The notes under the pieces: model-generated
Seen by the model: only the letters and a program-made list of their open reading frames with translations
What the model was told of the DNA's origin: nothing
Databases searched by the model: none
NCBI GenBank assembly: GCA_018673955.1
Contig: JABHBJ010000093.1
Span: forward strand, 10,931-74,930
Direction: 5' to 3'
Origin: Chloroflexota bacterium
Lineage (GTDB): Bacteria > Chloroflexota > Dehalococcoidia > Lucifugimonadales > Lucifugimonadaceae
Length of the DNA stretch: 64,000 bases
Shown: positions 11,338 to 13,979 of the stretch, one piece after another
How the letters are laid out: every line of letters begins with the position of its first letter
How positions within the stretch are numbered: the first letter of the stretch is position 1
Program-made: the position numbers and the translations under genes

Positions 11338-12351
11338 TCAGCCGATCGACGATGGCATCTTTACGCCAAGCCGATCACTGATGACTTCCATCGCCTGCCA
11401 CGCGGTATCGCCCAACGGAACATTTCCTTCCTTCCGAAGCTTTGCCATTCTTCGTTGGCTTCGTTCACCCGGGTAGTAAATCTCGTCTACTCCCTGTTTT
11501 TTCTTTCCGCTCTTCACGCGATCCAACTCCGTATCCATCGCGTCCTTGAATTCGGCGATAGGTCGGTATTCATCTGGATTTATCAGCCACAAAAAATGTC
11601 CCCAATCCGATCCGGCCAGTACATTTCCAAAAATGTCTGACATCAGGGCGAGTCCATAGCCACGTGCACCTGCCATCGGCAAAATCATGCTTGAGCCGAG
11701 CTCGTAGTCAGTGGCATCTGTCAGCGGAGAACCATCAGATTTCTCAACAAAGCCAGCGGGTATCGTTTCACCATTCGTCGCAGCTTCCCACACCTTGGCA
11801 GCGGCAATCGAACTAGTCGCCATGTCGAGAATGTACGGATCATACTTTCCAGCTGGAGCAGAGTATGCAATCGGATTTGTTCCGAACTTGCCTGTCAAAC
11901 CGCCGGTTGGCGGAATTATCGGATGCCGAAAAGCACTACAGGCAAAAGCGATAAGCCCCTCTTCAGCGGCACGCTGAACGTAAGGCGCAAGTGCAATTAC
12001 ATTGCCGGAATTCCTTACGCTCCCACCCGCCATGCCAACGGTTTTTGCCTTGGCAATACTTTTTTCCACAGCGATATTCATACCGATCACACCGCAACCG
12101 CCATCACCCTCGACAACCGTGGTAATTGCTGAATCTTTGATCACTTCAGTAGCGGGATCAGGATTAATTGTTCCGTCCTGATGCCAATCGATTACAAGTT
12201 TGAAAAAATACAAACCGTGATCTGGGCTACCACGAAGCTCACTATCGATAATAACCTCAGCGATTTGAGAAGCGGTTTCGGCGGATGAGCCAACTTTTAC
12301 AAGCGCTTCCTCCATAAATTTCATAGTGTCGACGATGGTGATAATCGGCAA
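11338..12351 (-). CDS. Ldh_2 family (malate/L-sulfolactate/ureidoglycolate dehydrogenase-like) oxidoreductase
   Basis: DSELRGSPDHG, GTNPIAYSAP, LDMATS, GARGYGLALM and YYPGE. Confidence 0.88.
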   Translation of the reverse strand: MPIITIVDTMKFMEEALVKVGSSAETASQIAEVIIDSELRGSPDHGLYFFKLVIDWHQDGTINPDPATEVIKDSAITTVVEGDGGCGVIGMNIAVEKSIAKAKTVGMAGGSVRNSGNVIALAPYVQRAAEEGLIAFACSAFRHPIIPPTGGLTGKFGTNPIAYSAPAGKYDPYILDMATSSIAAAKVWEAATNGETIPAGFVEKSDGSPLTDATDYELGSSMILPMAGARGYGLALMSDIFGNVLAGSDWGHFLWLINPDEYRPIAEFKDAMDTELDRVKSGKKKQGVDEIYYPGERSQRRMAKLRKEGNVPLGDTAWQAMEVISDRLGVKMPSSIG

Positions 12352-12472
12352 TCATTTTCTCTTTTGTTAAAATTTCTTCGGAAGCAAATTAGTCTGGTAG
12401 TAAATATTTTCACAAAGTCGACAAAACATACCACCTGCGCACACGGGGATCAGCTAAGATCATACCGTTTTC

Positions 12473-13789
12473 GTGGCTACCATTCGCCACACACCCTTTT
12501 GTCCGGTAATCGGAATAATCTCCAAAATTCGCAATATTCACTACGGCTGGATAGTCGTACTTGGCACCGCGCTCATGCTGTTCGGTGGCGCCGGATCGCG
12601 ATTCTCGTTCGGCGTATTTCTCAAACCAGTCACTGAAGAATTCGACTGGAGCCGTGGCTCTCTCGCGGGGGCACTCGCTGTCGCAGGACTCGCCACCGGA
12701 ACGCTACGCCCCGTAGCTGGTCTACTAGCCGACAAATACGACCCCAAGATCATCGCCTCAATTGGCGTTCTTATCGGCGGATTAGCCCTCTTCGCAATGT
12801 CGCAAGTTGAGGAACTTTGGCAGGTCTACCTCACGTTTATCGTCATGGGAGTAGGGTTCACCATGGCATCGCCCGGAGCAGTGGCGAAAATCATCGGAGC
12901 ATGGTTCACCAAACGACGTGGACTCGCAATGTCGATCGCCGGAACCGGCTCGGCTGCCGGTGAAACAGCACTCGTACCCACCGCCGCAATAGCGGTCGCA
13001 TACATCGGCTGGCGAGAGGGTTACATGATCCTCGGTGCGATCCTGATCGTACTGATACTGCCGCTCGTATTTTTCCTAATAAAAAGTAGACCCCGTCGAG
13101 GGCAGCACGCCGATGGCTACGTTGAAGGCGAAGTCGCAACCGACGAGGCAGGTTTCAGCAAAGGATCTGCCGATCCCAACCTTGGGATGTCGCTCGGGCA
13201 GGCATGTCGAACTGGACTATTCTGGCGACTCACAATTGGCTTCTTCATATGAGGCTACACAATGGGCTTCGTGAATGCCCACTTCGTCGCTTACACGACT
13301 GACTTTGGCGCAACAGCTGTGCAAGGTGCGGGTGCGCTTGCGACCGTAGGAATTGCCGGACTCGCCGGTGGCCTGAGCTTCGGATATCTCGCCGATAGGT
13401 TCGGACGTCGACCGTTCTTGGCTCTCTCGTACGCAATGCGAGCGATCGGGTACGCAGTGCTTTTGATGGCGACAAGTCTTCCGTTGGCGATTCTTGGAGT
13501 AGTGATAATCGGCAGCTCGTGGACCTCAGTGATTTCTCTCACAGGCACAGTCACATCCGATGAATTCGGACTTCGCCGCCTCGGCACGATATACGGCACG
13601 ATGTTCATGGTCATGCCGTTCGGAGCGTCCAGCGCAGTGTGGCTAGCTGGCAAGATCTACGACACCAACGGCAATTACGATCAAGCAATGTGGATCAGCC
13701 TCAGTATGGCGCTTATCGCCGCAACCGCAATCGCCATGCCAAGCACCGGCATCTCGAAAAAGATCTGGCCGAAGACGGAAGCAAGCTAG
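12473..13789 (+). CDS. MFS transporter (OFA/MCT-like) with an in-frame TGA at 13250-13252; candidate selenoprotein, alternatively a nonsense-split gene or pseudogene
   Basis: ORFs 12473-13252 and 13262-13789 share one frame: TTC TTC ATA TGA GGC TAC ACA ATG. Joined they give about 438 aa with IHYGW, motif A (GLLADKY) and a second motif A (GYLADRFGRR). The break falls inside the first helix of the C-terminal half. Confidence 0.8.
13263..13281 (+). promoter_or_regulatory. SECIS-like hairpin downstream of the in-frame TGA
   Basis: UGGGC-UU-[CGUG]-AA-u-GCCCA. The stem starts 10 nt after UGA and the apical loop 17 nt after UGA, with G in loop position 2. Confidence 0.5.
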
Positions 13790-13803
13790 CTAATCTAGCT
13801 TTT

Positions 13804-13979
13804 TGTCATTGCGAGGAAGCCAAAGGCTGACGTGGCAATCAACCATGTCAAGCAACGCAAAGTTCAGATAGTGGGAGCAGTCGCCCACTCGGATTCGTGC
13901 AGCATCACGACTCGCCTAGACTATCTGTCGAAACGGCTCAACCGTGATTGCCACGTCGCAGGACCTCTTCGCAATGACA
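13804..13979. repeat. Intergenic palindromic (REP/MITE-like) element
   Basis: Terminal inverted repeats TGTCATTGCGA/TCGCAATGACA plus an inner pair GACGTGGCAATC (13829)/GATTGCCACGTC (13946), between convergent genes. Confidence 0.8.

Follow-up and report, generated by a model that had tools for sequence, protein, structure and literature searches.

A 2026 review of prokaryotic selenoproteins lists in its Table 1, which includes the families of Haft and Tolstoy (2025), 119 families, none of them belonging to the MFS (PMC13188914). The same review gives, in the legend of its Fig. 2, a bSECIS model with a stem of 4-16 bp, a loop of 3-9 nt and an MFE of at most -7.5, and requires a G at loop position 1 or 2, at a distance of 16-37 nt from the UGA. 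In E. coli, recoding of UGA as selenocysteine (Sec) is reported to have a success of 30-40%, dependent on selenium (PMC4513850). Among transporters of solved structure, the proton site of the L-lactate/H+ symporter SfMCT is described as consisting of H250, D257, D378 and Y383 (PMC6573034), and its R280 as a substrate-binding residue, as are R272 and K355 in the oxalate:formate antiporter OxlT (PMC10070484); for LacY, a Glu325-Arg302 bridge has been described (PMC8154325).

The gene studied here lies in a stretch of 64,000 nucleotides from a Chloroflexota bacterium (the window, to whose positions the coordinates refer). It had been singled out from the DNA letters as a candidate Sec-containing MFS transporter, with the remark that no characterised MFS selenoprotein was known (hereafter, the original prediction). 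Our searches agree with this remark. No MFS selenoprotein was found in the literature or in the 119-family list (PMC13188914); the words 'MFS' and 'facilitator' are absent from the accessible main text and supplements of deep-Sep and BSepDB (the BSepDB supplement being possibly partial) and from the accessible main text of SelCysML and of the Actinomarina preprint; and the best 25 of 27 NCBIfam matches include no selenoprotein model. Considering the evidence presented below, the gene represents a real and well-supported new selenoprotein family within the MFS.

Gene structure and conservation of the in-frame TGA

12518..13789, + strand: MFS transporter gene with the TGA read through, 423 codons from the likely AUC start
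13250..13252, + strand: in-frame TGA, likely Sec260 in the middle of TM7, from column conservation and Cys in the outgroups
13262..13264, + strand: AUG of Met264, a false second-ORF start in gene callers; Met is found here in Cys-form homologs too

Residues are numbered throughout from the GTG at 12473 used in the original prediction, which gives 438 codons. The ORFs at 12473-13252 and 13262-13789 share one frame and are parted by the TGA only, as had been claimed. This TGA is the sole stop within 12473-13789, and translation with TGA as U returns a single protein with one recoded codon (residue 260). The protein matches PF07690 (Pfam MFS_1) with 167.7 bits against a cut-off of 33.4 over residues 33-386, that is, across the TGA, and its structure model, computed with Cys in place of Sec, has 12 helices (pLDDT 88, pTM 0.86); both this family match and the 6+6 helix fold make it a member of the MFS. 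Residue 260 falls within the predicted helix 248-276 (TM7), in line with the claim that the break lies in the first helix of the C-terminal half and not at the 6+6 boundary.

Neither half of the gene shows decay, again as originally stated: pN/pS, uncorrected and calculated against 26 orthologs of the genus, amounts to 0.169 upstream and 0.162 downstream of the TGA, which corresponds to purifying selection of equal strength on the two halves. The TGA is bridged unchanged, with no TGC or TGT, by contigs (assembled contigs, not raw reads) of four public runs, namely the DNA run X9 and the RNA-library runs X15, X16 and X17. The RNA-library contigs cover the gene; strand and level are not readable from them, and DNA carry-over is possible. 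Nor is the TGA private to this genome, since it is common to 53 others. That the gene is a pseudogene or the TGA an assembly error has a negligible probability, considering the presence of the codon in contigs of independent runs, its conservation over 37-100% identity and the equal constraint on its two sides.

The TGA occupies the same column in all 54 orthologous genome loci (37-100% identity), whose carriers belong to six families (f1, f5, f14, f25, f49 and f51). All 30 best loci among 61 relatives, our own included, have TGA at column 260, and so do 24/24 further loci, at 37-41% identity, from 301 genomes of the order. In G003, a 28th relative of the same genus, the contig end cuts the locus before the TGA site; genome G556 (L162, unpublished) was excluded from all analyses. 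In metagenomes, TGA is present in 79 of the 80 best loci, the single exception (43% identity) having TGC; these loci overlap the genomes and are not independent. Named relatives are Dehalococcoidia/SAR202 assemblies. They include Ca. Lucifugimonas marina JH545 (L070, 86% identity), a named strain with a complete genome that has the same TGA, hairpin and ATC, which makes the claim directly testable.

The original prediction expected a Cys at the TGA column, with FFICG or FFVCG at this point of related MFS proteins. A Cys is indeed present there: column 260 is Cys in 22/22 of the closest non-TGA loci (L162 left out), in 7/7 full-length database homologs, in 85 of 140 full-length representatives, and in 11 of 29 more distant class-level loci. 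The homology search thus revealed a TGA/Cys alternation at column 260, and the in-frame UGA aligned with a conserved Cys of homologs is what is expected of a bacterial selenoprotein. As many as 26 of the 33 database matches end exactly at column 259. In a 59-row tree (quick search, midpoint root), the TGA forms and the truncated forms constitute one clade (SH-aLRT 100), which is nested among Cys forms and contains no Cys form. The tree and the 80 metagenome loci point to one Cys-to-Sec origin, with no reversion seen. Because the TGA is kept at one column in the relatives and Cys stands there in the distant ones, the UGA is, judging from the alignments, very likely decoded as Sec.

Further TGA forms were found neither among the 29 loci examined from 400 class genomes searched with the truncated homolog P0157 nor in 400 phylum genomes, both sets of genomes being samples. 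P0157 belongs to a cluster of 10 proteins, most of them of 241 aa, which end exactly at column 259; within the TGA clade they constitute a long branch. The search of the 400 class genomes did not recover their DNA, and the cluster may be a further Sec lineage. The genome studied here also contains a Cys-form paralog of the subfamily (L056, G000:C74:50030-51241; 29% identity), which has TGT at the column and whose branch is remote from the Sec clade.

The 5' end of the gene, unlike the original prediction had it, does not appear to be the GTG at 12473, which is not conserved; the orthologs point to the ATC at 12518. The features concerned, and the one at the 3' end, are:

12518..12520, + strand: likely non-canonical AUC start; ATH in the genus, aligned with the ATG of other clades
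12455..12460, + strand: possible -10 promoter hexamer TAAGAT (TATCCT-like in relatives), from an upstream alignment by eye
13783..13809, + strand: intrinsic-terminator-like hairpin and T run at the stop codon

Nine codons before an invariant Gly-Trp, all 28 genus genomes have ATC (26), ATT or ATA. Upstream of this ATH codon, an in-frame stop occurs within five codons in nine of the genus genomes, and in 18 the open frame contains no ATG, GTG or TTG. The first canonical start downstream would cost half of TM1; from codon 16 onward the variation is mostly at third positions, and the DNA upstream has indels. The genus-level metagenome loci have ATH in 48/49 cases and CTC in one; the start is ATG or GTG in 19/20 loci of the sister clade, and ATG in 19/19 for the adjoining glnA. 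In two genomes a TTG one codon before the ATH provides an alternative start. Initiation in this genus probably takes place at AUC 12518, as these alignments suggest, and such a start would hold the synthesis of the transporter low.

In most genus loci (L027-L053), a block consisting of GATCAG, then a TANNNT hexamer, then GCCATC is located about 45-65 nt before the ATC (12455-12517 in the window). From its sequence the block is possibly a promoter; the hexamer at 12455..12460 is not among the predictions of a sigma-70 scan. Since the transporter gene has its own terminator-like hairpin and no neighbour is conserved across clades (39 loci), it likely stands alone; the neighbours give no hint of a substrate. 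An Ldh_2-family dehydrogenase gene (11338-12351, - strand) separates it from glnA here. This gene is present here and in 2/22 genus loci, and it looks like an insertion because elsewhere glnA is directly upstream of the transporter. The terminator is followed by a palindromic element of 176 bp (13804-13979) in which two pairs of arms are nested; an 11-base piece of its arm occurs 12 times in the genome, and the element may be akin to REP-type repeats.

Selenocysteine machinery and the downstream hairpin

The genome contains the machinery for Sec that the original prediction would lead one to expect, i.e. selA, selB and selD above cut-offs (selD with a TGA of its own) and one tRNA-Sec. TGA terminates 140 of 1015 long ORFs, and therefore the code is table 11, with TGA otherwise a stop. 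These data bear on the possibility that UGA is read as Cys or Trp, either by another tRNA with a UCA anticodon or under an alternative code, or that it is subject to leaky read-through. The outgroups do have Cys, and the DNA does not name the inserted residue; however, the sole UCA-anticodon tRNA among the 37 found in this genome, which is 87% complete and may thus have a further tRNA in its missing part, is the tRNA-Sec, with 66 bits against RF01852, and table 11 applies, so that a reading other than Sec is very unlikely.

Outside this genome, selA was found in 53/53 other TGA carriers (in one of them split over two contigs), and selB in 5/5 carriers checked. Among the genomes of the order, selA is present in 68 of the 72 searched, the four without it having no TGA form, and it is also present in 5/5 Cys-form genomes; because selA is so common in the order, also in Cys-form genomes, its co-occurrence with the TGA is a weak test.

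By coding score, this TGA comes second among the 7088 read-through candidates of the genome; the scan by coding score was used instead of a motif-based SECIS scan, which was too noisy (302 of the 7088 candidates). Among the 18 other candidates that were scanned, 12 fall into, or look like members of, selenoprotein families already in the catalogues (OsmC, rhodanese, three Prx-type, CC/Se, two UGSC, TlpA, DUF3179, PrdB-like and Grx), and in most of the other candidates a hairpin whose apex contains a G is formed at a similar distance. This is a selenoprotein-rich genome, with at least 12 candidates of catalogued families plus SelD (L134-L151, on other contigs of G000). L135 (85 aa, no family match), in which an in-frame TGA has coding signal on either side, may represent a selenoprotein not yet catalogued, and L138 and L139 are possibly broken genes.

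The hairpin by which SelB and tRNA-Sec would be guided in decoding the TGA is located just downstream of it:

13263..13281, + strand: SECIS-like hairpin with the 5-bp stem UGGGC/GCCCA, from folds, synonymous freeze and pair 16:30

The pair probabilities of the stem are 0.93-0.99, and the CGUG apex is at 13270-13273, its GU being at +22/+23 counted from the U of UGA. The energy is -7.9 for the hairpin alone and -12.5 over 45 nt. The original prediction had described a hairpin of bacterial SECIS geometry, and its 5-bp stem, loop size and energy do fit the bSECIS model; the position and spacing of the G fit only if the loop is parsed as CGUG (G at position 2, spacing 17 nt), which is 1.9 kcal/mol above the minimum. 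In the minimum-energy structure, the loop has 9 nt, with G at position 4 and a spacing of 15 nt. Two inner U-A pairs, which had been drawn between stem and loop, have a probability of about 0.05. The proposed pairing of UGAGG with CUUCG (13282-13286) lacks support, occurring only in a 40-nt fold and having a probability of 0.005 with 45 nt. An alternative lower helix (4-8/38-43) was rejected, being only 80% paired across orthologs. Rfam gave no match near the hairpin; its three weak matches are all sub-gathering and elsewhere.

Of the synonymous redraws of the same peptide, only 2.6% give an equally stable fold, and both the stem and the CGUG apex are preserved in 5%. No stretch of the gene is more strongly frozen at synonymous sites than the 30 bases 3' of the TGA, with which the best 11-codon windows all overlap. 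For the five four-fold codons that directly follow the TGA, top-codon frequencies in 28 genus sequences are 0.89-1.0, compared with a mean of 0.50 for the other 119 four-fold codons, only one of which reaches 0.89. The stem is intact in 52/54 TGA loci versus 1/33 Cys loci, and the CGUG apex is found in 54/54 versus 0/33; in L096 and L101 (f51) two other stem pairs are broken in this register, yet the RNA still folds. Pair 16:30 is G-C in 18, A-U in 21, U-A in one and U-G in one of 41 distinct rows. The hairpin is thus conserved as foreseen, and to a degree that the protein sequence does not demand; the covariation of its stem is limited to this one column and is mostly a single clade-level change. 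Alongside the hairpin, TM7 changes from Phe-Ala-Ser-Thr-His in the closest Cys forms to Phe-Val-Asn-Ala-His. In L159 (G496), a Cys-form homolog, the stem folds in the SECIS register without the GU apex, a possible pre-SECIS state.

The same stretch could be read in another way, with the TGA as a true stop and a second protein re-initiating at AUG 13262 with GAGG as its Shine-Dalgarno sequence, so that the transporter would be made in two pieces. The arrangement of GAGG (overlapping the stop), 7 nt and AUG is invariant in 54/54 loci, the overlap would itself favour TGA over other stops, and LacY is described as functional with its two bundles expressed separately (PMC8154325). However, the cut would be in the middle of TM7 and not in the linker, and the stop falls exactly on the conserved Cys; in addition, the 9-nt spacer varies only as Gly-Tyr-Thr/Ser codons and without indels, Gly261 and Met264 are ancestral, as they are found in Cys forms, and the hairpin sequesters the UG of the AUG. 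Synthesis in two pieces therefore appears highly improbable, and decoding of the UGA as Sec is the reading adopted in what follows.

Fold and candidate roles of residue 260

The SfMCT residues H250, D257, D378 and Y383 map to H270, D277, D397 and Y402, which are kept in the Sec forms (45/45, 43/45, 44/45 and 45/45 respectively). SfMCT R280 and OxlT R272 both map to Gly300, and OxlT K355 maps to Met381; because the carboxylate-binding Arg and Lys are missing, the protein is not a lactate or oxalate carrier. The ESM Atlas returned unnamed MFS clusters only.

No Asp or Glu is found in TM7-TM11 over the helix ranges used, and Arg323 is the sole mid-membrane charge of these helices. Arg323 occurs with Cys260 in 83 of 85 Cys representatives as against 1 of 55 others; independent Cys-Arg coevolution was rejected, with three changes on the tree, in favour of a clade signature. 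Residue 381 is His in 73/85 Cys-clade members, and Met in the Sec clade and in its nearest Cys relatives. As His381 is lost in the Sec clade, Sec may compensate for the missing base.

The OxlT counterpart of residue 260 is Val232, which lies two turns below Val240 of the periplasmic gate. On this mapping, the Sec would be located about one turn cytoplasmic of the substrate plane, where a second-shell position is more likely than a direct lining of the path. The original prediction had placed it in a helix likely lining the substrate path, and is right as to the helix, TM7; path-lining by the Sec itself is less likely.

The pKa of Sec is near 5, compared with about 8 for Cys, and Arg302 of LacY is located on TM9. 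In the mechanism that we propose, Sec in the middle of TM7 may act as a buried selenolate paired with Arg323 of TM9; the selenolate (or the thiolate in Cys forms) would neutralise Arg323 and would titrate during transport, similarly to Glu325-Arg302 in LacY. Taken as a whole, the reading of the gene as one 12-helix MFS protein, with the TGA as Sec in the middle of TM7, perhaps acting there as a buried selenolate with Arg323 in proton-coupled uptake of a small organic solute, seems highly probable. The part of it that concerns the selenolate-Arg323 pair and H+ coupling of uptake, which is drawn by analogy, is tentative and in itself somewhat short of an even chance. More doubtful is an extension of the same analogy, in which Sec would be the titratable group of a secondary transporter in the role of LacY Glu325, with neither a redox nor a metal-binding function, and AUC and UGA together would tie the supply of transporter to selenium. 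It can also be speculated that the weak AUC start would limit half-transporters arising from failed recoding.

A different role would be the binding of, or reaction with, the substrate, which might be a thiol, a persulfide, a selenium species or a soft metal or metalloid, as proposed for YeeE, MerT-like and SaoP-type proteins. The predicted Sec transport proteins are mostly tied to metal or metalloid handling (PMC13188914), TM7 is described as a cavity helix (PMC8154325), and the wider Cys clade has a TM11 His where OxlT has the substrate-binding Lys355. On the other hand, none of the conserved neighbours in 39 loci is a metal, thiol, sulfur, selenium or resistance gene, which weakens the thiol, metal or selenium binding suggested in the original prediction; the score for ArsK (NF033733) is 26.4 versus a cut-off of 400, no CxxU or CU motif is present, and the mapping on OxlT would place the Sec one turn off the substrate plane. 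We regard a Sec that binds or reacts with the substrate as unlikely.

Redox gating had also been suggested, and finds no partner for the Sec: the Sec clade has no other Cys that is conserved throughout, C245 being genus-only and 15 residues away. It is conceivable that the Sec is either such a gate or simply a substitute for the ancestral Cys that resists oxidation, in a lineage where many proteins have exchanged Cys for Sec, as the selenoprotein-rich genome, with several Prx-, Grx- and TlpA-type candidates, and the single Cys-to-Sec origin without observed reversion would suggest. However, zero reversions are not readily explained where Cys is easily usable, and with the partner Cys missing we consider this explanation rather improbable.

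Relation to known systems

If the assignment is true, the largest secondary-transporter superfamily joins the selenoprotein list, and its Sec, placed within a membrane helix and lacking a redox motif, runs counter to the view of Sec as nearly always part of an oxidoreductase or a metal ligand. The assignment also draws attention to a Cys-Arg site, invariant and as yet unstudied, of a widespread MFS subfamily, and corrects annotation in SAR202-type ocean bacteria, in which the 26 truncated database matches are cut at the TGA and the start codon is miscalled as well.

Among proteins of solved structure, SfMCT (6g9x/6hcl; NF049980; PMC6573034) is the best sequence match (E 1.5e-42) and the best Foldseek match. 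The Sec forms share its periplasmic proton-site His/Asp/Asp/Tyr, but the NF049980 score is 151.5 versus a cut-off of 320, the essential TM8 Arg280 is replaced by Gly, Ala, Thr or Ser, and SfMCT has, by alignment, Gly and Gln where this protein has Sec260 and the TM9 Arg323. OxlT (8hpk; TIGR04259; PMC10070484) is the top VIA-align match (Z 46, rmsd 2.7 A, 379 residues). Its Trp324 maps to Trp350, whereas Arg272 and Lys355 are not kept and the TIGR04259 score is 102 versus 335.

The predicted Sec transport proteins (YeeE/YedE, SaoP, MerT-like, SO_0444 efflux and E1-E2 ATPase; PMC13188914, Table 1) are likewise membrane proteins that combine a UGA in a Cys column with a bSECIS 3' of it. None of them is an MFS protein, and most have a named motif (CxxU, UxC or GUxSG), whereas the Sec described here has no conserved partner Cys. 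The Cys-clade MFS proteins, for which no functional study was found in the literature, are marked by Cys-Gly in TM7, Tyr-x-x-Arg in TM9 and His-Gln in TM11, are exemplified by MCC7372327.1 (Chloroflexota) and WP_310764513.1 (Brevibacillus), and belong to the same subfamily. The TGA forms are nested among them, and the Cys-clade proteins differ in having Cys in place of Sec, no CGUG apex in any of the 33 Cys loci, and, in most cases, a retained His381.
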